Of a stretch of DNA of 64,000 nt, positions 10,081 to 55,775 are shown one piece after another. Each line of letters opens with the position of its first letter. The first letter of the stretch is position 1. A program made the translations under genes and the position numbers. A model generated the notes under the pieces. The model did not search any database, was not told where the DNA came from, and saw only the letters and a program-made list of their open reading frames with translations. This DNA is from Rivularia sp. T60_A2020_040 (GTDB lineage: Bacteria > Cyanobacteriota > Cyanobacteriia > Cyanobacteriales > Nostocaceae): contig JACYMD010000048.1 of the NCBI GenBank assembly GCA_015272215.1, positions 4,874 through 68,873 of the forward strand, written 5' to 3'.

Positions 10081-10162
10081 ACTTCGCTAGTAAACGATAT
10101 TCGCGCAGCCGATTTAAATAAAATTAGTATCCAAAAGTGTTTTGTTTATCAAGACAATCTAA

Positions 10163-43507: not shown

Positions 43508-44386
43508 TCAACCTTTTATAGGTACTTCTTGAATGTTAGCTAAGTTAACTAAGGTTACATCGACTCCAGGTAAATTTTGAGCCGATGATTTTGTATCAGA
43601 ACCAACAATCTGTCTTTGACAACGAGAAGCATACTGACAATGATTACACGTTTTGTTACCTTCGGATAGTTGAGGAAATTGTTCTCCTTGTTGATAAGCT
43701 TCTAGCCATTGAGTTAACCGATTTAAATGTTGGTTGAGTTTCTTTTTGGTTTGCTGATGCTGGGAAGAATTATAACTAAATTTAATACTGTGTGGTTTGC
43801 TTGGAGACTGCACAAACCAATAAGTCATGGAAATATTTTCTGGTGGATAATCGCTGGTTTCTGCTAATACGTACAGATAAAGACGTGTTTGCCAATTGTA
43901 TTGCAGTTTACGTTTATTTTCCGGTTTGGGATAAGTTTTCCAGTCAAAAATCTCTGCTTGTTCTGGATTTGCAATCAATAAATCGTAAATAGCCGTCAGC
44001 AGATAATTTTCTACTTGCAATGTACGGTAATGTTCGCTTTCGCGAAATATCTCGCTATTTCCATTATTAATTAAAATTTCTGGTGCTGCTATCGCAAAAG
44101 CTTTTATCCAATTTTGCAGTTGCGAAATATCATGATTATTTTTACGATCATCATCATCAGCTTGCAAAAATTTATCAATTTCCAAACCCATTTCTTGCTG
44201 CTGCATCAATAAGTGAAAGCGGCTTCCCTGTAACTGTTTTTCTTGATTTTCTGGCTTTGTTGGGGGACGGAGTTGTTCTAAATAAGTATGTTGAAATTCA
44301 CGCGGACAACGTTCTAATAAGTTAAGTTGTCCTTGAGAAATTCGCAGTAATTGATTTTGTGGCGAATTAGTTATGGAAATCATCAT
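43508..44386 (-). CDS. PD-(D/E)XK nuclease family protein (RecB/AddB/Cas4-like, Fe-S Cys set)
   Basis: LERCPR, GSRFH, YDLL, IFDWKT, YLYVL, C-terminal CNHCQYASRC. Confidence 0.8.
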   Translation of the reverse strand: MMISITNSPQNQLLRISQGQLNLLERCPREFQHTYLEQLRPPTKPENQEKQLQGSRFHLLMQQQEMGLEIDKFLQADDDDRKNNHDISQLQNWIKAFAIAAPEILINNGNSEIFRESEHYRTLQVENYLLTAIYDLLIANPEQAEIFDWKTYPKPENKRKLQYNWQTRLYLYVLAETSDYPPENISMTYWFVQSPSKPHSIKFSYNSSQHQQTKKKLNQHLNRLTQWLEAYQQGEQFPQLSEGNKTCNHCQYASRCQRQIVGSDTKSSAQNLPGVDVTLVNLANIQEVPIKG

Positions 44387-47122: not shown

Positions 47123-48577
47123 ATGAATTTAGCTCGTTTTTCTACCGGAATTGTAGGCTTTGATGAAATTCTTCAGGGGGGTTTAATCCCAAAGCGAGCT
47201 TATTTAGCAAGGGGTGGTCCGGGTTGTGGTAAAACTATTTTAGGATTACACTTTTTGGCTGCTGGTATCGCAAAAGGCGAAGCAAGTCTTTATATTACTT
47301 TAGGAGAACCAGCAGCACAAATTAAAACTAATGGTGCAATTCTGGGTTTTGATACTGAAGCGATAAATTTTCTGGATTTAAGTCCCGGTGCAGATTTTTT
47401 CACGCAAATCCAAACTTATGATATATTTTCGGCTGCGGAAGTTGAGCGCGAACCTACGACTCAAAGAATTATTGAGGCAGTACAATCACTGAAGCCAGTA
47501 CGAGTTTTGATTGATTCAATGACACACTTTCGCTATTTGTGTACTGATGATTTTCAGTTTCGTAAACAAGTATTATCATTTGTACAATTTTTATTGCAAG
47601 CTGGCGCAACGGTATTATTTACTTCTGAGAGTAGTCGGGAAGCTCCTGATCATGATTTACAGTTTATTAGTGACGGAGTAATTGACCTGCATAATTCCTT
47701 AGAAGGAAGAAATATTAGCGTTACTAAGTTTCGTGGTTCTGATTTTCTCCCTGGTTTACACTCCCTACGTTTAACTTCTGAGGGAATGCGAGTTGCTCCT
47801 AGATTACAAACACAAATTTTTAAACGAGAATTTAATCTTGAAATAATTTCCTCTGGTGTACCAGAATTAGATGAATTGCTCCATGGTGGTATCGAACGGG
47901 GAACTGTAACAATTGTAACAGGTCCGACGGGTGTGGGTAAAACTACTTTAGGACTCCAGTTTATGAAAGAAGCAGCAGGAAGAGGTGAGCGTTCTGTAAT
48001 TTATAATTTTGAGGAACATGAAGAAACTTTATTGGCTCGTTCTGAAAAGGTAAATATTCCGATTCATGCAATGATTGCAACTGGTAATTTATCTGTTGTC
48101 AGAGTTGAACCTCTAGACTTGACTCCTGACGAATTTGCCAATCTAGTACGTGACGAAGTAGAACAAAATAAAGCCCGTATTGTGATGATTGACAGCATAT
48201 CAGGTTACAGAGTTGCGATGCGTCGTCGTGAAGATTTGGTGACTCATTTGCACGCTTTGTGTAAGTATTTACAAAATATGGGTATTACGGTAATTTTAGT
48301 TAATGAAACAGATAATATCACGGGTGACTTCCGCGTCATTGAATTAGGTATTAGTTATATTGCAGATAATATTATTTTCTTACGTTATTTAGAAATTGAT
48401 GGCAAAATTCAAAAAGCCATTGGTGTATTGAAAAAAAGGTTATCTGATTTTGAAAAAACTTTGCGAGAAATAGAAATTACTCGTTATGGGATTAAAATAG
48501 GTAATCCATTAGTTAATCTCAGAAAAATTCTTAGTGGTAGTCCAGAATGGGTAGATCGAAATGATAGCAAAAAATGA
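47123..48577 (+). CDS. Double-domain KaiC-like (RecA-superfamily) ATPase, non-clock type
   Basis: Two Walker A motifs (GGPGCGKT, GPTGVGKT); STGIVGFDEIL and SSGVPELDELL; VLIDS and VMIDS; ISYIADNII at the phosphosite position; no kaiA/kaiB nearby. Confidence 0.85.
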   Translation: MNLARFSTGIVGFDEILQGGLIPKRAYLARGGPGCGKTILGLHFLAAGIAKGEASLYITLGEPAAQIKTNGAILGFDTEAINFLDLSPGADFFTQIQTYDIFSAAEVEREPTTQRIIEAVQSLKPVRVLIDSMTHFRYLCTDDFQFRKQVLSFVQFLLQAGATVLFTSESSREAPDHDLQFISDGVIDLHNSLEGRNISVTKFRGSDFLPGLHSLRLTSEGMRVAPRLQTQIFKREFNLEIISSGVPELDELLHGGIERGTVTIVTGPTGVGKTTLGLQFMKEAAGRGERSVIYNFEEHEETLLARSEKVNIPIHAMIATGNLSVVRVEPLDLTPDEFANLVRDEVEQNKARIVMIDSISGYRVAMRRREDLVTHLHALCKYLQNMGITVILVNETDNITGDFRVIELGISYIADNIIFLRYLEIDGKIQKAIGVLKKRLSDFEKTLREIEITRYGIKIGNPLVNLRKILSGSPEWVDRNDSKK

Positions 48578-48654
48578 GTTCAAGTTTTTATGCAGCATTA
48601 TTCGTCATTTTGAATTTAGAATTAGTTAATCAATTTTTGAGCAAAGGATTAGGG

Positions 48655-49770
48655 ATGAAAAAGATTTTACTACTTCTCGAACACAAGCAAAATAGATGTT
48701 TGCTATCCCATTCTTTGCAAGAAGCAGGTTATGAAATTTTTTATCCATCTGATAATGATGATTTATTAAAATTAGATAATCCTTTAAAGTTAGATAATTC
48801 TTTTGATTTGTGTATTCTTGGCCCAAGAGCTTTAGATAAGTTCAGTGATTGGGTAGAAGCAACCAAAAAAGCAGAAGAACCTGTTTTTCTACCCTTTCTT
48901 TTAATGACATCCCGTACTGATGTGAAAATGGTAACGCGACATTTATGGAAAATTATTGATGAGTTGATTACTAATCCCATAGAAAAATTAGAATTGCAGG
49001 TGCGTATTGAAGCTTTATTACAAAGACGACAGTTATCATTAAAATTAAAAGCTGCTAACGATAATTTAAGAAATCTCAACGAATTAAAAAGCCGTTTTAT
49101 TTCAGTTGCATCTCATGAGTTTCGCAATCCGCTGCATATTATTTTAGCCTACTCACAAATGCTTTATCGTGGAAGTGAAAAGTTAAGTCCAGAAAAGAAA
49201 CAGGAATTATTTGGGCGCATCAAAGCATCTTCTAGTAAAATGACTAATACTTTAGATGATGTTTTAACATTAACTAAAGGAGAATTGACACAACAAAAGT
49301 GCAATTTACAAAGTTTAGATTTACCTGAGTTTTGCCGTCAACTTATCGCAGAAATTCAGGTAGGTATCGTTACTAACCATAATATTAATTATACAATTCA
49401 CGGTGAATATACAAAAGCTTATTTAGATGAAAATTTACTACGTCAAATTATCACAAATTTGCTCACTAATGCAATCAAATATTCACCATCAAATAGTAAA
49501 GTAGATTTTGATTTGATTTTTGAAAGTAAAGAGATTATATTTAAAATCAAAGATAATGGTATTGGTATACCTTTAAAAGACCAGCCTTATTTATTTGAGT
49601 CATTTCGTCGTGCTTCTAATGTTGGTCAAATCCCCGGTACTGGTTTAGGTTTGGCAATTGTCAAACAATCAGTAGATTTACACGGTGGTCAAATTACTGT
49701 TGATACTCAAGTTGGAATCGGTACCACTTTTACCGTTACTTTACCATGGATTGATACAATTGACGAGTAA
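48655..49770 (+). CDS. Histidine kinase with N-terminal pseudo-receiver domain
   Basis: HisKA ASHEFRNPL; HATPase N/G boxes LLTNAIKYS, DNGIGIP, GTGLGL. The REC-like domain lacks the acidic pair (LEH), the phospho-Asp (DLCILG) and the Lys (ITNP). Confidence 0.85.
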   Translation: MKKILLLLEHKQNRCLLSHSLQEAGYEIFYPSDNDDLLKLDNPLKLDNSFDLCILGPRALDKFSDWVEATKKAEEPVFLPFLLMTSRTDVKMVTRHLWKIIDELITNPIEKLELQVRIEALLQRRQLSLKLKAANDNLRNLNELKSRFISVASHEFRNPLHIILAYSQMLYRGSEKLSPEKKQELFGRIKASSSKMTNTLDDVLTLTKGELTQQKCNLQSLDLPEFCRQLIAEIQVGIVTNHNINYTIHGEYTKAYLDENLLRQIITNLLTNAIKYSPSNSKVDFDLIFESKEIIFKIKDNGIGIPLKDQPYLFESFRRASNVGQIPGTGLGLAIVKQSVDLHGGQITVDTQVGIGTTFTVTLPWIDTIDE

Positions 49771-49993: not shown

Positions 49994-51016
49994 CTAAAAT
50001 TGTAAGAGTTTAGAAGGTTGACTTTCTGGTTTGATATCTTTACTTCCAGGAAAAACACCTGCTGCGGATAAAATTTTAATTGCTGATAAAAGAGCTAATA
50101 AACAAACTAAAATTAGAATAATTTTATCGCTTCCTAACTCTGCCTTAGATGAATTGAAATTATTTGGGACACTAACTATTTTTGTTGGAGAATTGGATTT
50201 TAATTGAGATAATTCTTCCAATACTTTATCAACACAAATATACCTACTTCTATAGTCATAACGTACCATATTGTTCAGAATATTTTTCAGCCAATCGCTC
50301 ACTTCTGCTTGATGACACCAAAGGATTTCTCCGTTGATATCTGTTTGAAAATCTTGCGGTTCGATATCTGTTAACATTTGAATTGCAGTTATTCCTAATG
50401 CGTAAATATCGCTGTTGTATTGGGGATTCCCTTGAATTTGTTCTACTGGAGCATATCCCAAAGTATAAATTCTCGTCGGTGGAGTTTGTATTTGAGTAGA
50501 TATTGTAGTTTTTAAAACTTGTTTAATTCCTCCTGCACCAAAATCAATTAAAACTAATTTTTTATCTGAATTACGTCTGATAATATTACTAGGATTAATA
50601 TCGCGGTGAATGATTTGCTTACTATGTATAAACCGCAAAATTGTCAAAATTTCTGTTAATAATTCAACGATATATTCCTCTGATTTTTTACCTTCTTCTA
50701 ACTCTTCTCGGATAAGTTTACCGGAAATAAACTCTTCTACTAAGAAATGTTCTTGATTTTGTTCCCAGTAATCAATAAATTGGGGAATTTGCGAATGTCC
50801 ATTTAAACTTTTGAGAATATCAACTTCTCTAAGAAACAATTTTCGAGCTATAGCGTAATTATTTGGATCATTATTAGGAAAAGTAAAATGCTTGAGAGCA
50901 TAGTGATTTTGATTATCTACTGACTTTACCAAGTAAGTAGTCCCAAATCCTCCTTCCCCCAACTTCTTAATGATTGCATAACCTCTGTGGGTTATTTGTG
51001 ACAATCCCCTCATCAT
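49994..51016 (-). CDS. Hanks-type Ser/Thr protein kinase with C-terminal TM anchor
   Basis: LGEGGFG, YALK, HRDINPSN, LIDFG, GYAPVEQ, SDIYALG; TM IILILVCLLALLSAIKIL; no extracellular sensor domain. Confidence 0.88.
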   Translation of the reverse strand: MMRGLSQITHRGYAIIKKLGEGGFGTTYLVKSVDNQNHYALKHFTFPNNDPNNYAIARKLFLREVDILKSLNGHSQIPQFIDYWEQNQEHFLVEEFISGKLIREELEEGKKSEEYIVELLTEILTILRFIHSKQIIHRDINPSNIIRRNSDKKLVLIDFGAGGIKQVLKTTISTQIQTPPTRIYTLGYAPVEQIQGNPQYNSDIYALGITAIQMLTDIEPQDFQTDINGEILWCHQAEVSDWLKNILNNMVRYDYRSRYICVDKVLEELSQLKSNSPTKIVSVPNNFNSSKAELGSDKIILILVCLLALLSAIKILSAAGVFPGSKDIKPESQPSKLLQF

Positions 51017-51171
51017 GAAAATTCCTAGTTTACATGAAGTTTTTAATTTAACTTTGTAAAATAAATAACTTACCAAATTTTTCTGATTATACTAGTATAA
51101 TTACTGTTACAGTTAATATTTCAACATTAAATATATTACTTAATTAATTTTAACTATTTTGCCACAAAATT

Positions 51172-52428
51172 ATGTTTCAGATGAATAAGAACTTATTGTT
51201 TTATTTAATTATCTTTATCTGTTCTTTGTTATTAGTTTTATCTATATTTTTTCCTAATATTCTTTCTTGGTTAGTGGTAATAATTTTTATCTGTTTGATA
51301 TCTAAGTTATGCTTTGACGGCATACAAACAAGACGAGATATGCTTGATAATCAAAAATTAGATCGCATTATCAACACTCTTAATTCCGATTTAGATATTG
51401 CTTTGAGAAAATTTTCTCCAAATCAACTGTATAAAATTAATAAACTATCTTTACTCGATAAAATTTTTCGCGACAATCAAGAATTACAAATTTGGGAAAA
51501 AAACCAACGTTACTATCACAACTTACCCAATTTATTATTAGCATTTGGCTTATTAGGTACTTTTGTCGGTATCACGATTAATTTATTTCTTTTAAGTCGT
51601 AATACAGGTGGAGAAATACCTTTAGACGAAACTTTAGAAGATATTATTGGTTCAATGGCAATTGCTTTTATCAGCAGTTTAGCAGCATTAGTTAGTAGTG
51701 TAATTATTGCAAAATTTCATCCGGCATACGATTTAGAATTATGCAAAAATAATTTATTTAATCAGTTAGAATATTATTTAGAAAATGAATGTCAAATTTT
51801 ACTAAATTTACCGAGCATTCCAGAAAAAATTGATGATTTAATTCAAAGTTTAGTTAATTTACCCCAAAGTATTAAAGAATTAGAAAAATCAGTATCGGTT
51901 TCTTCTCACAATTTGTTAACAAGTTCTCAGAGTTTTCAATCAAAAATAGAAGATGCTGGTAATATTATCAAAAAAAGTTCTCATGTATTGAATGAAGCAA
52001 CGAGTAATTTAGTAAAAGTAACCCAAGATTTTTCAAATTTTATTTCTATTTTAAAAACATCAACAGTATCTTTGGAAGGAACTAGTACAGCACTAGCAAG
52101 TTATACTGAGAATTTACAAACACTTATTAACGATTTAAATAATAGTTCGTCAAGAATACAAAATTTGATTAAAAGCAATCAAAATGAATTATCCAATGTA
52201 TCTTTACGATTAGAAGAAAATGGCAACTCTCTTTTATCTTCAACTCAAACTTTTAATATCAATGCTTCTCAAGTTAAAGAAGCTTTGAATAATCATACAG
52301 GACAAGTTAGTATACACAATTCCAATTTACAACAATTAGCAATTCAGATTAGCAATAATAGTCAGATTTTAGAACATATTCAGCAGGATTTGCAAAATAT
52401 AGTTAATGCTTTTAAAGCTCAGGATTAA
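51172..52428 (+). CDS. ZorA-like MotA/TolQ/ExbB-family membrane protein with long helical cytoplasmic tail
   Basis: N-terminal TMs, LPNLLLAFGLLGTFVGI, GSMAIAFISSLAALVSS, then about 200 aa of Ser/Asn/Leu-rich periodic helical tail. Confidence 0.72.
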   Translation: MFQMNKNLLFYLIIFICSLLLVLSIFFPNILSWLVVIIFICLISKLCFDGIQTRRDMLDNQKLDRIINTLNSDLDIALRKFSPNQLYKINKLSLLDKIFRDNQELQIWEKNQRYYHNLPNLLLAFGLLGTFVGITINLFLLSRNTGGEIPLDETLEDIIGSMAIAFISSLAALVSSVIIAKFHPAYDLELCKNNLFNQLEYYLENECQILLNLPSIPEKIDDLIQSLVNLPQSIKELEKSVSVSSHNLLTSSQSFQSKIEDAGNIIKKSSHVLNEATSNLVKVTQDFSNFISILKTSTVSLEGTSTALASYTENLQTLINDLNNSSSRIQNLIKSNQNELSNVSLRLEENGNSLLSSTQTFNINASQVKEALNNHTGQVSIHNSNLQQLAIQISNNSQILEHIQQDLQNIVNAFKAQD

Positions 52429-52574
52429 TATGTAAAAAGTATTTAAGAATAAAAACCGCAGAGACGCAGAGTACGCAGAGTTAAGAGATAGAAGAGAATA
52501 AGAGACATATTACGGATTGCTATAGTAGTAGTTGATATACAAAAATTCTTCTATTCCCTTTTACAATATTTTAT

Positions 52575-53288
52575 ATGTCCAGAAAATTTAGAAATAGTCT
52601 ACCTCAAGATACATTTAATATTTGGACTTCCTTTACAGACTTAATGTCTAATGCTTTTATGGTGCTGACGCTACTACTATTATTAAGTATGTCTAAAATT
52701 CCTAGTTTAAATCGTCAGCAACGTTTACAACAGTCAGATAATAGCAAACAAAAAATTATTGTTCTCCCCTCAGAAGAATACAAATTTGCATCTGGTAGTG
52801 CTGAATTACCCAGTAATCTCAGCAAAGATATTCAAAATAATCTTCAGGATGGTAAAATTTTACAAGCAATCAAACAACAACTTGATAATGCTCAAAATAT
52901 AATAGACATTATCGAAGTTATTGGTCATACTGATGGACAAGAAGTTGGTTCTCTTAATTGTCATCAAAAATTCGGCAGACGTGGTAACCTAGATAAAGAA
53001 TTAGAAGCAGTCGCTACTCAAGCCAAAAACGTTTCAATTTTATGTCCTGGTTCTAATACCGATTTAGGATTAATCAGAGCTTTAGCGGTAATTAAGGAGC
53101 TACAAAAAGCCCAAAATCAAGAAAAAACAGGACGATTTAAACAAGTTTCATTTCGAGCATATTCATCAGGGCAATTATTATTACCTCAAAATCTCGGCTT
53201 TGCTAAACCAGAAAGAAAAGAAGATAAACAAAGACGAAGAATTGAAATTAGGTTTACTCAATTAGCTCAGGAAACTACTCCACAATAA
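52575..53288 (+). CDS. ZorB/MotB-like protein (TM with conserved Asp + OmpA-like peptidoglycan-binding domain)
   Basis: IWTSFTDLMSNAFMVLTLLLLL; FASGSAEL; IEVIGHTD; RALAV; RRIEIRF. Confidence 0.8.
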   Translation: MSRKFRNSLPQDTFNIWTSFTDLMSNAFMVLTLLLLLSMSKIPSLNRQQRLQQSDNSKQKIIVLPSEEYKFASGSAELPSNLSKDIQNNLQDGKILQAIKQQLDNAQNIIDIIEVIGHTDGQEVGSLNCHQKFGRRGNLDKELEAVATQAKNVSILCPGSNTDLGLIRALAVIKELQKAQNQEKTGRFKQVSFRAYSSGQLLLPQNLGFAKPERKEDKQRRRIEIRFTQLAQETTPQ

Positions 53289-54095: not shown

Positions 54096-55463
54096 TTAAC
54101 CATAATTTGAAACTTTTAGTAGAGGATTCATTAACTGATTAAATTCACCGTCTTTAAAACTTGCTTCCCAATTAGTAGGTAAACGTTGGGGATTCGGATC
54201 TTCTGGTGTCGGTACCCGTAAAAATATATAATCGCAATTAATCGGATATAATAGAGTTTGAACAGTTATATTCCAATCCTCTACATATGCTCCCGTTAAA
54301 TTGGCATTTCTTAAATCCGCTTTGTCTAATTGCGATCGCACTAGTTTCGCTCTAGACATATCCGCGTTTCGCAAGTTGGTTTCGCTCAGATTCGCTTCGA
54401 TAAAACTTGCATCTTTCAGATTTGCTCCTTGTAAATTTATTCCTCGTAAGTTCCAACCGTCAAATATTTTGTTTTGTAAATTCTTATTGACAACTAACTC
54501 GCGCATCTGAATATTTTCTAAATAAGTCGTATTTACTGCTGCTAAATGTACTTTTTTGATTTCAAACCAATTGGTGCCTTTAACTTTGGCTTTGGTGAAA
54601 TTAGCGCTTTTGAGTTTAGCTTGAGTAAAATCAGCATCTGTTAAATCAGCATTACGAAAACTAGTTCCGTACCTCGTAATTAGAGAAATCGCAATCTTAC
54701 GCACAAAATTCTGCTTTTTATCTTCAAAAATGGCGCAACAACCGATATAAGCAGACAGAATTACCAAGATTAACGATACGGTACCGGCTGCTATTCCCGC
54801 AACCGGGTTTACCATCATCGCATATACCGATATCGTACCAGCAACTAATCCCGCGAACATTACAGTCAGAGTAACCGCGAAAATTCCGGCGATTGCCCCC
54901 GTAATTGCTGCTGTAATTGTGACAAAGACTGCTCCTACCGCAGTGACAATGACGGCTACTGTTCCTGTCGCTACCACAGCGACGATTGGGGCAATTTCGA
55001 TTGCTTCATTAGTGGCGGCTAATCCACTCCAGACAACGGCTACAAAGCCCGCCCAAGCTATTGCCGTAACTACTGCTAAGGCAATAGCTACCGCCAAAAA
55101 ACCGCAAGCTGTCAATAGCCCCTGACGGATGCTTAATAGAAAAAATACTGATAAGATGATTAAACTTGCTACACCCACATAGAGATTTTCGCGAGTGCTA
55201 TCAATTAAAATAAATCCCACCAAAGAGCCACCAACAGCCGACATTAATCCACTCAGCGCCGATAGCAGTAAGGACAATAAAATTATCATAATTGCCCAAC
55301 GACGTTGTAAACCTGCTGTTGTATTGCTGAAATTTGCATCTCTGAGAATAGCATTAGTGAAATCAGCACCGCGAATGTCAGAGCCGGAAAAATCTACACC
55401 CGTTAAATCTTGTCCTTTAAATGATTTTCCTCGAAGTTTTGCACGACGGTATTCTTGAGCCAT
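54096..55463 (-). CDS. Pentapeptide-repeat membrane protein
   Basis: A(D/N)LxxA-type repeats at both ends flanking a long Ala/Val/Gly-rich multi-TM region; ends ...PNPQRLPTNWEASFKDGEF. Confidence 0.85.
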   Translation of the reverse strand: MAQEYRRAKLRGKSFKGQDLTGVDFSGSDIRGADFTNAILRDANFSNTTAGLQRRWAIMIILLSLLLSALSGLMSAVGGSLVGFILIDSTRENLYVGVASLIILSVFFLLSIRQGLLTACGFLAVAIALAVVTAIAWAGFVAVVWSGLAATNEAIEIAPIVAVVATGTVAVIVTAVGAVFVTITAAITGAIAGIFAVTLTVMFAGLVAGTISVYAMMVNPVAGIAAGTVSLILVILSAYIGCCAIFEDKKQNFVRKIAISLITRYGTSFRNADLTDADFTQAKLKSANFTKAKVKGTNWFEIKKVHLAAVNTTYLENIQMRELVVNKNLQNKIFDGWNLRGINLQGANLKDASFIEANLSETNLRNADMSRAKLVRSQLDKADLRNANLTGAYVEDWNITVQTLLYPINCDYIFLRVPTPEDPNPQRLPTNWEASFKDGEFNQLMNPLLKVSNYG

Positions 55464-55775
55464 TTTTAACCAATTACACGTCAAGACAGGACTATGTTTT
55501 TACCGGGAAACGCCGGTTGCCACAGACTCCGCCGAGAATCGGCGGAGTACGGCGACTTTTTTCCCTAAATTATATTTGAAATATGCTCATCTAACTGCCA
55601 GTCGCTTAGAATCCTACCACAGTTATCAGTTATCAAATTCAAAATTATCTTCCCATCTATCTATCTCTTCCCCTTTCTTTGACTCGATAAACCAGCAGTA
55701 TTGCGTAGAGACTTTATACTTACGAGTCTTTACAATAAATTATTCAAATTATTTAAATTTTTACATCCTTCAAAC

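Follow-up and report, generated by a model that had tools for sequence, protein, structure and literature searches.

The 64,000-nucleotide stretch of contig JACYMD010000048.1 of Rivularia sp. T60_A2020_040 analysed here (hereafter the window) carries three adjacent genes, which code for a ZorA-like and a ZorB-like protein and, on the opposite strand, for a membrane-anchored Hanks-type Ser/Thr kinase, and which very probably make up one functional unit, a ZorAB-like motor with its dedicated kinase. Judged from its sequence, the motor pair is ZorAB-like, a distant relative that lies outside the curated Zorya families, and the apparent use of a kinase in place of a nuclease module on a Zorya-like core is new relative to Zorya types I–III. 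The full reading, in which the triad would be a Zorya-like variant whose motor senses envelope perturbation and whose kinase provides the output, probably against phage, is given a probability of about one half. Such an interpretation had been put forward in a first-pass annotation of the same DNA; it is supported overall, and the three open reading frames (ORFs) on which it was built were all recovered with unchanged coordinates (Table 1).

Conserved linkage of the motor pair and the kinase

The first-pass annotation had suggested that the neighbourhoods of homologous pairs be surveyed for recurrent kinase linkage, and such linkage was found throughout the related loci. The survey comprised 80 genome loci, 80 metagenome loci and 9 further loci, annotated with hidden Markov models (HMMs) derived from the window's three proteins, and detectable ZorA-like homologues were restricted to cyanobacteria. 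A divergent kinase was present in all 45 assessable loci with a ZorA-like identity of at least 31% (36 from genomes or assemblies, 7 of the 7 assessable ones from metagenomes and 2 further ones); one metagenome contig ends 213 bp upstream of the zorA-like gene and was hence not assessable. The linked loci share one gene order, with the kinase gene directly upstream on the opposite strand, followed by the zorA-like and then the zorB-like gene. Because what flanks the linked genes varies between at least 10 different genomic contexts, the triad is the sole conserved unit, and its recurrence in 45 of 45 assessable related loci indicates that the arrangement is beyond chance.

The kinases themselves point in the same direction. 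In a neighbour-joining tree of 150 kinase domains, all triad kinases fall into one clade, the other members of which are only database copies of the same short kinases (307–372 amino acids). Multi-domain cyanobacterial kinases with an equally similar catalytic domain (44–47% identity) all lie outside this clade, and every kinase within it for which a locus was examined adjoins a ZorAB-like pair. Among 30 non-redundant triads, the pairwise identities of the kinase, the A protein and the B protein correlate with r = 0.95–0.97, a correlation to which shared ancestry contributes and which still shows that the three genes stayed together. The triad, a module of filamentous cyanobacteria, is rare, being found in 29 of 185,579 species genomes and, at E ≤ 1e-30, in 20 clusters at 50% identity among 1.84 billion representatives.

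Broken motor genes were seen in two lineages. In Richelia intracellularis, a diatom symbiont, the zorA-like gene is spread over three ORFs and the zorB-like gene over two next to an intact kinase gene (L014:4332-6327), and in a Calothrix metagenome-assembled genome the zorB-like gene is split in two (L012:9523-10238, the same sequence as in L089). They may reflect real decay or sequencing errors in AT-rich homopolymers; as the frameshifts could be such errors, the pseudogenisation in Richelia was not used as a sign of dispensability.

A motor pair related to ZorA and ZorB

The ZorA-like protein contains LPNLLLAFGLLGTFVGIT and AIAFISSLAALVSSVII, and its channel-helix motifs are GLLGTFVG and AFISSLAALVSS. 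The two MotA-type motifs read from it earlier stood in part: AFISSxxxLxSS is present literally, whereas PxxGLLGTxxG holds only approximately, with the Pro six rather than two residues before the Gly. T130 and S168/S169 in the core channel helices are invariant in the homologue alignment, the columns of this core have a conservation of 0.80–0.92, and the stretch aligns with the ion-filter region T147/S184 of Escherichia coli ZorA, in which these two residues form the filter (PMC11946911). Twelve ZorA models of PADLOC match the protein (best ZorA2, PDLC00635, 1.8e-14, residues 98–341), and the only NCBIfam motor families that match it are three ZorA families (ZorA_2 at 6.7e-6). When the family profile was compared with all PDB sequences, the only membrane motor matched was ZorA (8qyk, 4.9e-5), the transmembrane (TM) region aligning to ZorA residues 72–195. 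In a Foldseek search with the protein model, type I ZorA (8vvn_D) came first, with PomA and TolQ close behind; because the latter two score nearly equally, the fold search supports the superfamily only, and it is the sequence profiles that point to ZorAB.

Behind the channel helices, the long periodic helical tail described in the first-pass annotation is well borne out. It comprises 233 amino acids and is all-helical after residue 186 in the AlphaFold2 (AF2) model, with helices at residues 186–210, 216–296 and 299–417. Its hydrophobic residues recur with a heptad-like period of 3.55 residues, at a power of 2.73 compared with a maximum of 1.97 in 500 shuffles. The tail is composed of 14.6% Ser, 13.3% Asn and 5.2% Thr, its conservation is lowest near the membrane (0.52–0.70) and rises to a second peak at residues 331–375 (0.76–0.79), and in the PDB profile search it was weakly similar to the signalling domains of methyl-accepting chemotaxis proteins (2ch7, 3ja6).

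The ZorB-like protein carries the WxSxxDLM helix that had been recognised in it, NIWTSFTDLMSNAF fitting this pattern with the helix reading WTSFTDLM. The predicted ion-path residue Asp22 (codon 52638-52640) lies in this N-terminal TM helix and is invariant in 21 homologues, as are GHTD, N161/L164/R168 and RRRIEIR further on. These latter positions belong to the OmpA-like domain, likewise noted before, which spans residues 60–228, is predicted to bind peptidoglycan, is modelled by AF2 with a predicted local distance difference test score (pLDDT) above 85 and shows the motifs GHTD, N161-x2-L164-x3-R168-A and RRRIEIRF. Five PADLOC ZorB models match the protein (ZorB1 at 1.2e-6), and the PDB profile search placed type I ZorB of Shewanella (8vvn_B, 1.3e-7) and E. 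coli ZorB (0.015) both ahead of PomB. Foldseek also returned 8vvn_B at the top (3.8e-5), with MotB domains close behind.

Both proteins were thus matched when the PADLOC ZorA and ZorB HMMs were run, as had been recommended, while the NCBIfam Zorya cut-offs were far from reached. A better score as an ExbB/ExbD or TolQ/TolR transport energiser, which had been named as the finding that would speak against a ZorAB assignment, was not obtained: the ZorA and ZorB models match and the ExbB/TolQ models do not. At an E-value of 0.1, no NCBIfam model of MotA, PomA, ExbB or TolQ was hit, and no model of ExbD, TolR or MotB either. The Pfam MotA_ExbB model reached the ZorA-like protein with E = 0.014 and 15.6 bits, compared with a cut-off of 22.9, and the OmpA model on the ZorB-like protein was also below its cut-off. 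On the profile scores and the OmpA-like domain of the B subunit, ExbBD, TolQR and a flagellar stator were excluded as identities of the pair. By homology with E. coli ZorAB (PMC11946911), the two proteins most likely form a 5:2 motor of the Zorya type in the inner membrane, which would be driven by protons, be anchored to peptidoglycan and pass activation on to the cytoplasm through its tail.

The pair had been called effector-less. ZorC, ZorD, ZorE, ZorF and ZorG models match none of the window's other ORFs (42 with 120 or more amino acids), so the canonical effectors are indeed absent from it; the wording itself is less apt, and the locus is better described as having a kinase in the effector's place.

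A tail-anchored kinase that lacks a sensor domain

As first read, the third protein is a TM-anchored Hanks-type kinase that has no sensor domain. Pfam Pkinase matches it at 5e-38 (131 bits, cut-off 31.7), its single TM helix is C-terminal, and the lack of a sensor domain follows from the mere ~18 residues that lie beyond this helix. The helix ends in a conserved AAG[LVI][LF]P, followed by a short polar outer tail of 18 residues, and the motif and tail together are a plausible contact site. The G-loop, the VAIK Lys (K42 from the ATG), the alpha-C Glu, the HRD Asp (D139), the DFG Asp (D158) and an APE-like motif are conserved in 33 triad kinases. Their catalytic loops are of two kinds. Twelve of the 33, the window's included, have HRDINPxN (HRDINPSNI at 50591-50617 in the window, with Lys replaced by Asn) and mostly AG[GA] after the DFG, and the other 21 have HRDIKPxN and mostly AVK at that place.

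The PADLOC PD-T4-6 model PDLC04045 matches the kinase at 7.7e-91, and 38 PD-T4-6, MkoA and mad6 models match it via the kinase domain, as do the NCBIfam models MAD6 and PglW; all of these matches are below the NCBIfam cut-offs. The PD-T4-6 label also falls on a kinase gene in every S. thermophilus genome analysed (PMC11514479). Being generic kinase similarity, the match was not taken as evidence for an identity as a single-gene PD-T4-6 defence orthologous to that of E. coli, and the kinase never stands alone in the loci examined.

Gene starts and the divergent intergenic region

The longest ORF of the kinase gene (49994-51076, minus strand) starts from a TTG at 51076, and the alignment of orthologues favours the ATG at 51016, which gives a protein of 340 amino acids. 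With this start, the spacer between the kinase and zorA-like genes is about as long (155 bp) and as AT-rich as had been stated, with a GC content of 0.18 compared with 0.3675 for the window. The triad as a whole is AT-rich relative to the window, the zorA-like gene having 26.8% GC.

In an alignment of the intergenic region, the 90 bp nearest the zorA-like gene are kept in 7 loci and the kinase-side part is not. Within the kept part, about 72 bp before the zorA-like ATG, lies TATACTAGTATAATTACT, a block with hardly any variation in which a perfect palindrome of 12 bp and a TATAAT hexamer overlap. The block is identical in L008, L009, L010, L012, L014 and L015, has one mismatch in L011, is kept where the ZorA-like identity to the window's protein is 73–94%, and was not found in more distant triads. 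It occurs exactly once in the window, and two matches are obtained there when one mismatch is allowed, compared with 0.22 expected. This block is a candidate shared promoter/operator for the window's subclade only, and TATACTAGTATAAT, within the 155-bp region, is likewise a putative shared promoter/operator. Promoter and terminator scans were uninformative, since their counts were no higher than those of shuffles. The gap between the zorA-like and zorB-like genes (52429-52574) measures 146 bp, compared with 78–144 bp in the closest relatives and about 0–30 bp in most other triads. Matches to the triad sequence in sequencing runs came from stromatolite and lagoon DNA metagenomes only, with no RNA run among the matched runs.

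Table 1. Features of the triad in the window and of related loci (the latter given with their survey numbers, L)
Feature	Position	Strand	Evidence
Tail-anchored Hanks-type Ser/Thr kinase, 340 amino acids	49994..51016	-	Pfam Pkinase, motif alignment, monophyletic clade
Single C-terminal TM helix of the kinase	50051..50122	-	Sequence, alignment of C-termini
Catalytic domain of the kinase	50177..50980	-	Pfam, motif alignment
Divergent intergenic region, 155 bp, GC 0.18	51017..51171	.	
Nearly invariant block TATACTAGTATAATTACT	51088..51105	.	Alignment, exact-match search
ZorA-like channel subunit of the MotA/ExbB superfamily with long cytoplasmic tail, 418 amino acids	51172..52428	+	PADLOC, NCBIfam, PDB profile, Foldseek
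Core channel helices of the ZorA-like protein, residues 118-182, with T130 (GLLGTF) and S168/S169 (AFISS)	51523..51717	+	Alignment, HMM alignment to ZorA residues 72-195
Cytoplasmic helical tail of the ZorA-like protein, residues 186-418, Ser/Asn/Gln-rich	51727..52425	+	AF2, periodicity, conservation profile
ZorB-like subunit of the MotB family, 237 amino acids	52575..53288	+	PADLOC, PDB profile, Foldseek, alignment
Four-gene FtsZl1 operon	L005:3349-10328 (Fischerella sp. NIES-4106); 21 more loci, e.g. L045, L046, L055, L059, L062, L078, L087		
Small protein with motif LPLAVYREVAAHLRQV	L005:2861-3103; L048:7146-7436		

Kinase-less relatives and vWA + FtsZl1 operons

A proteins at 30% identity or less keep their ZorB-like partner, have no kinase beside them and form separate clades. 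In the genome scan, vWA + FtsZl1 (tubulin-like) operons account for about 40% of such kinase-less ZorAB-like pairs. In 22 cyanobacterial loci, a protein of about 384 amino acids and an FtsZl1/Tubulin_2 GTPase of about 1084 amino acids (Tubulin_2 Pfam 7.1e-106 in the Fischerella locus) are followed on the same strand by a ZorA-like and a ZorB-like protein. The protein of about 384 amino acids, which no Pfam model matched, is read from its sequence as vWA-like with a TM helix. This operon corresponds to the vWA + FtsZl1 system with an 'OmpA-like' gene and a proposed role in membrane remodelling that was described by Makarova and Koonin (2010, PMC2875224), in a figure of which Ser/Thr kinases are shown among the gene neighbours of FtsZl1 (PMC2875224). 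Because the last two genes of the operon are ZorA-like and ZorB-like, the 'OmpA-like' gene of 2010 appears to encode a ZorAB-like motor's B subunit. No vWA or FtsZl1 gene was found in the kinase-linked loci or in the window, and other kinase-less sub-clades lie among housekeeping genes. From these kinase-linked, FtsZl1-linked and other contexts it follows that cyanobacterial ZorAB-like cores join different partners, as is the case in Zorya I–III (PMC11890865).

A small protein of 80–96 amino acids with the motif LPLAVYREVAAHLRQV is encoded just upstream of kinase-less pairs in two sub-clades, and similar ORFs were seen in 9 loci. It precedes the vWA-like gene in the FtsZl1-linked clade and lies directly upstream of the zorA-like gene in the Dapis/Trichodesmium/Okeania clade; no Pfam or PADLOC model matched it.

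Genomic neighbourhood

An association of the homologues with defence genes, on which the first-pass annotation had laid weight, does occur: in one lineage the pair borders a defence-gene hotspot. In 13 syntenic genomes of Nostoc, Calothrix, Tolypothrix and Aulosira, a variable slot lies between the zorB-like gene and a conserved metallophosphoesterase/nadA. In L018, L020 and L022–L028 (zorB-like end near 10150), this slot holds defence genes, with a different set in almost every genome; the cargo includes GmrSD-like/HNH (NsnA, 2.6e-58), a NACHT STAND NTPase, a UG35 reverse transcriptase (E = 0), an RmrA-like HTH protein with an M78 peptidase, PDC-M09A, a HEPN/PDC-M34B protein and an HNH protein. 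In L002, L017 and L021 the slot is occupied by a ParE toxin-antitoxin pair, and PIN/FitA and Uma2 genes were found on the kinase side, upstream of the kinase gene. In other triads, a BsuBI/PstI restriction-modification pair lies near that of L168 and a PIN toxin near another. The guilt by association is real but imperfect, because the triad could be a flank of the hotspot rather than part of its cargo. Carriage on mobile elements was not supported, there being no match in the plasmid and viral collections searched.

Several other genes of the window were also noted. The kinase gene directly adjoins two genes at 47123-49770 that overlap by 4 bp and code for a double-domain KaiC-like ATPase (Pfam KaiC 3.4e-77) and a HisKA/HATPase_c histidine kinase; both are kept in L009 and L010 and look like a signalling pair that, in other genomes, has no connection with the triad. 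On the other side lies the gene of a 462-amino-acid protein (54096-55484, minus strand) whose long polytopic membrane core, rich in Ala, Gly and Val, is flanked at either end by pentapeptide repeats; beyond the window, only its closest relatives (L008–L010) keep this gene downstream of the triad. A PD-(D/E)XK nuclease of the Cas4/RecB-like type (Pfam PDDEXK_1 2e-36, with weak PADLOC Cas4 matches) is encoded at 43508-44386 on the minus strand, and a 232-amino-acid TIR-domain protein (PADLOC PycTIR 1.5e-12, TIR effector 2.4e-12) at 416-1114 on the minus strand, at the far end.

Proposed mechanism and alternative explanations

With a sensor-less kinase in the same membrane as the only conserved partner, the most economical arrangement has the motor as sensor and the kinase as output. 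In characterised Zorya, the ZorAB core is the sensor and its partner the effector (PMC11946911). When the envelope or peptidoglycan is perturbed, most probably by a phage that attaches or injects its genome, the OmpA-like domain of the ZorB-like protein would engage the peptidoglycan. Ions could then pass Asp22, and the ZorA-like pentamer with its coiled-coil tail would move. This movement would activate the adjacent kinase, either via its TM helix and short outer tail or via the conserved distal part of the ZorA-like tail. The kinase would in turn phosphorylate cellular or phage targets, with growth arrest or a block of phage replication, rather than DNA cleavage, as the likely consequence. 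The analysis shows the family affinities of the proteins, their intact catalytic and ion-path residues and the obligate, co-diverging linkage of the three genes; assembly into a complex, the direction of the signal and a role against phage are inferred.

Several observations weigh against this mechanism. On the side of the motor, the NCBIfam families antiphage_ZorA_2, ZorA_3 and ZorA1 give 25.4, 21.1 and 18.4 bits, compared with cut-offs of 100, 250 and 750; Foldseek barely separates ZorA from PomA and TolQ; and the AF2 model of the ZorA-like protein, of moderate confidence in the region concerned, has no beta-hairpin, which is treated as typical of Zorya A subunits (PMC12505986). On the side of the kinase, the Lys to Asn exchange in the catalytic loop of the window's subclade may lower kinase activity, and the PD-T4-6 score is not evidence of defence, the label being generic. 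The coupling geometry is also not straightforward, because the kinase is tethered within about 20–40 residues of the membrane and the conserved tail block 331–375 is far down the tail. As for the genomic setting, the window's neighbours are the KaiC-like ATPase, the histidine kinase, a peptide deformylase, the pentapeptide-repeat membrane protein and an FtsX-like protein, which do not amount to a defence island. The triad is largely vertical, with one chromosomal position in the 13 syntenic genomes, may be a conserved flank of the hotspot rather than its cargo, and was not found in plasmids (tblastn) or viral contigs (scan).

The genomic points would also fit an unlikely but still serious alternative, in which the module and its signalling direction are the same and the role is physiological. 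The module would then watch over the integrity of the peptidoglycan or envelope, respond to osmotic or mechanical stress or to damaged filaments, and adjust how filamentous cyanobacteria maintain their cell wall or develop. The mostly vertical inheritance in Nostocales, the fixed position, the housekeeping and signalling neighbours in the window and the absence from plasmids and viral contigs would all suit such a function. Thousands of related Hanks kinases have signalling roles in cyanobacteria, and the sister clade sits in the vWA + FtsZl1 operons, for which membrane remodelling rather than defence has been proposed. However, a basic envelope function would be expected to be less rare and patchy in its distribution, toxin-antitoxin genes and the defence hotspot lie beside the module in several lineages, and the closest characterised relatives, ZorAB, are defence proteins.

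The kinase could also be the input instead of the output, phosphorylating the ZorA-like tail or the ZorB-like N-terminus and thereby gating a motor whose mechanical work, for example membrane or envelope remodelling of the kind proposed for the FtsZl1-linked sister systems, is the actual function. The Ser and Thr content of the tail, with several near-invariant Ser/Thr residues, would offer sites, divergent genes fit a regulator-plus-operon layout, and related pairs use non-kinase partners, so the motor may itself be the effector. This arrangement is nevertheless improbable, since a kinase lacking a sensor domain has no evident input, the locus has no further conserved component on which the motor could act, and in characterised Zorya it is the core that senses and the partner that acts (PMC11946911). 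That the kinase and the pair are independent neighbours by synteny, the pair being an orphan or degenerate Zorya core or using effectors encoded elsewhere, is disfavoured and hardly credible: shared ancestry alone would yield correlated divergence of neighbours, but the linkage holds in every assessable locus and through 10 or more contexts whose other neighbours have all changed, the triad kinases form a monophyletic clade with all examined members beside a pair, and the kinase-less relatives fall into separate clades.

With somewhat less than even probability, ZorAB-like motors are general sensors of envelope perturbation with interchangeable outputs, namely the nucleases of Zorya I–III, a vWA/tubulin-like GTPase machine in many cyanobacteria and a dedicated Hanks kinase in the triad. 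In that case the triad would provide the first example of direct activation of a protein kinase by an ion-driven rotary (5:2) motor, and mechanical or ion-flow sensing at the cell wall would be converted into a phosphorylation signal. Protein phosphorylation would also join torque, force transduction and nuclease recruitment among the known outputs of 5:2 motors. A kinase as the only partner would give a simple quantitative read-out of motor activation, through autophosphorylation or substrate phosphorylation, by which the trigger of Zorya-type systems (phage, peptidoglycan damage or membrane deformation) would become directly testable. A candidate defence or envelope-sensing system would also be added to the filamentous cyanobacteria, the immune repertoire of which is poorly known.

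Comparison with known systems

Stk2 of Staphylococcus epidermidis is a kinase-based anti-phage defence, and Hanks-type kinases are likewise defence components as PglW of BREX, MAD6 of MADS and PD-T4-6. None of these kinase defences is known to be associated with a MotAB-like motor, in which they differ from the triad. No description of a kinase-linked ZorAB pair was found in full-text searches of the literature or in papers on Zorya structure, Zorya modularity, MotAB evolution and FtsZl1; this search did not extend to subscription-only papers.

The other 5:2 motors, MotAB/PomAB and ExbBD/TolQR, share with the window the superfamily fold (Foldseek E 0.05–0.8) and the Asp of the B subunit, and MotB/PomB also the OmpA-like domain. 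MotAB, ExbBD and TolQR differ in having rotor- or TonB/TolA-coupling surfaces where the window's protein has a long coiled-coil tail, and ExbBD/TolQR further in the ExbD/TolR-type periplasmic domain that takes the place of the OmpA-like domain. It is well established that cyanobacteria have no flagella, and no flagellar genes were found in the window. Nor is there a TonB- or TolA-like partner, because no neighbour other than the kinase is conserved with the pair.

The vWA + FtsZl1 operons contain the nearest sequence relatives (25–30% identity in the A protein, about 45% in the B protein) and, like the window, combine a ZorAB-like core with a non-nuclease partner. Unlike the window, they have no divergent tail-anchored kinase, and their A proteins are longer (about 430–790 amino acids).

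With Zorya I–III, the window shares an A subunit of the MotA/ExbB superfamily with a long cytoplasmic coiled-coil tail, the gene order A then B, a B subunit with the essential TM Asp and an OmpA-like peptidoglycan-binding domain, and the principle of a constant AB core with variable partners; exchange of partners around the ZorAB core is documented for all three types (PMC11946911, PMC11890865). The differences lie in the partner, which is ZorCD, ZorE or ZorFG in Zorya and a membrane-anchored Hanks kinase on the opposite strand in the window, Zorya genes typically lying on one strand (PMC11946911), and in the tail, which has 233 amino acids in the window compared with residues 223–729 in E. 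coli ZorA. The window's module, likened to Zorya by its sequence, is also confined to cyanobacteria, unlike Zorya itself. Taken together, all steps before the output most likely proceed as in Zorya, yet the module falls outside Zorya I–III on its effectors and on the curated thresholds.

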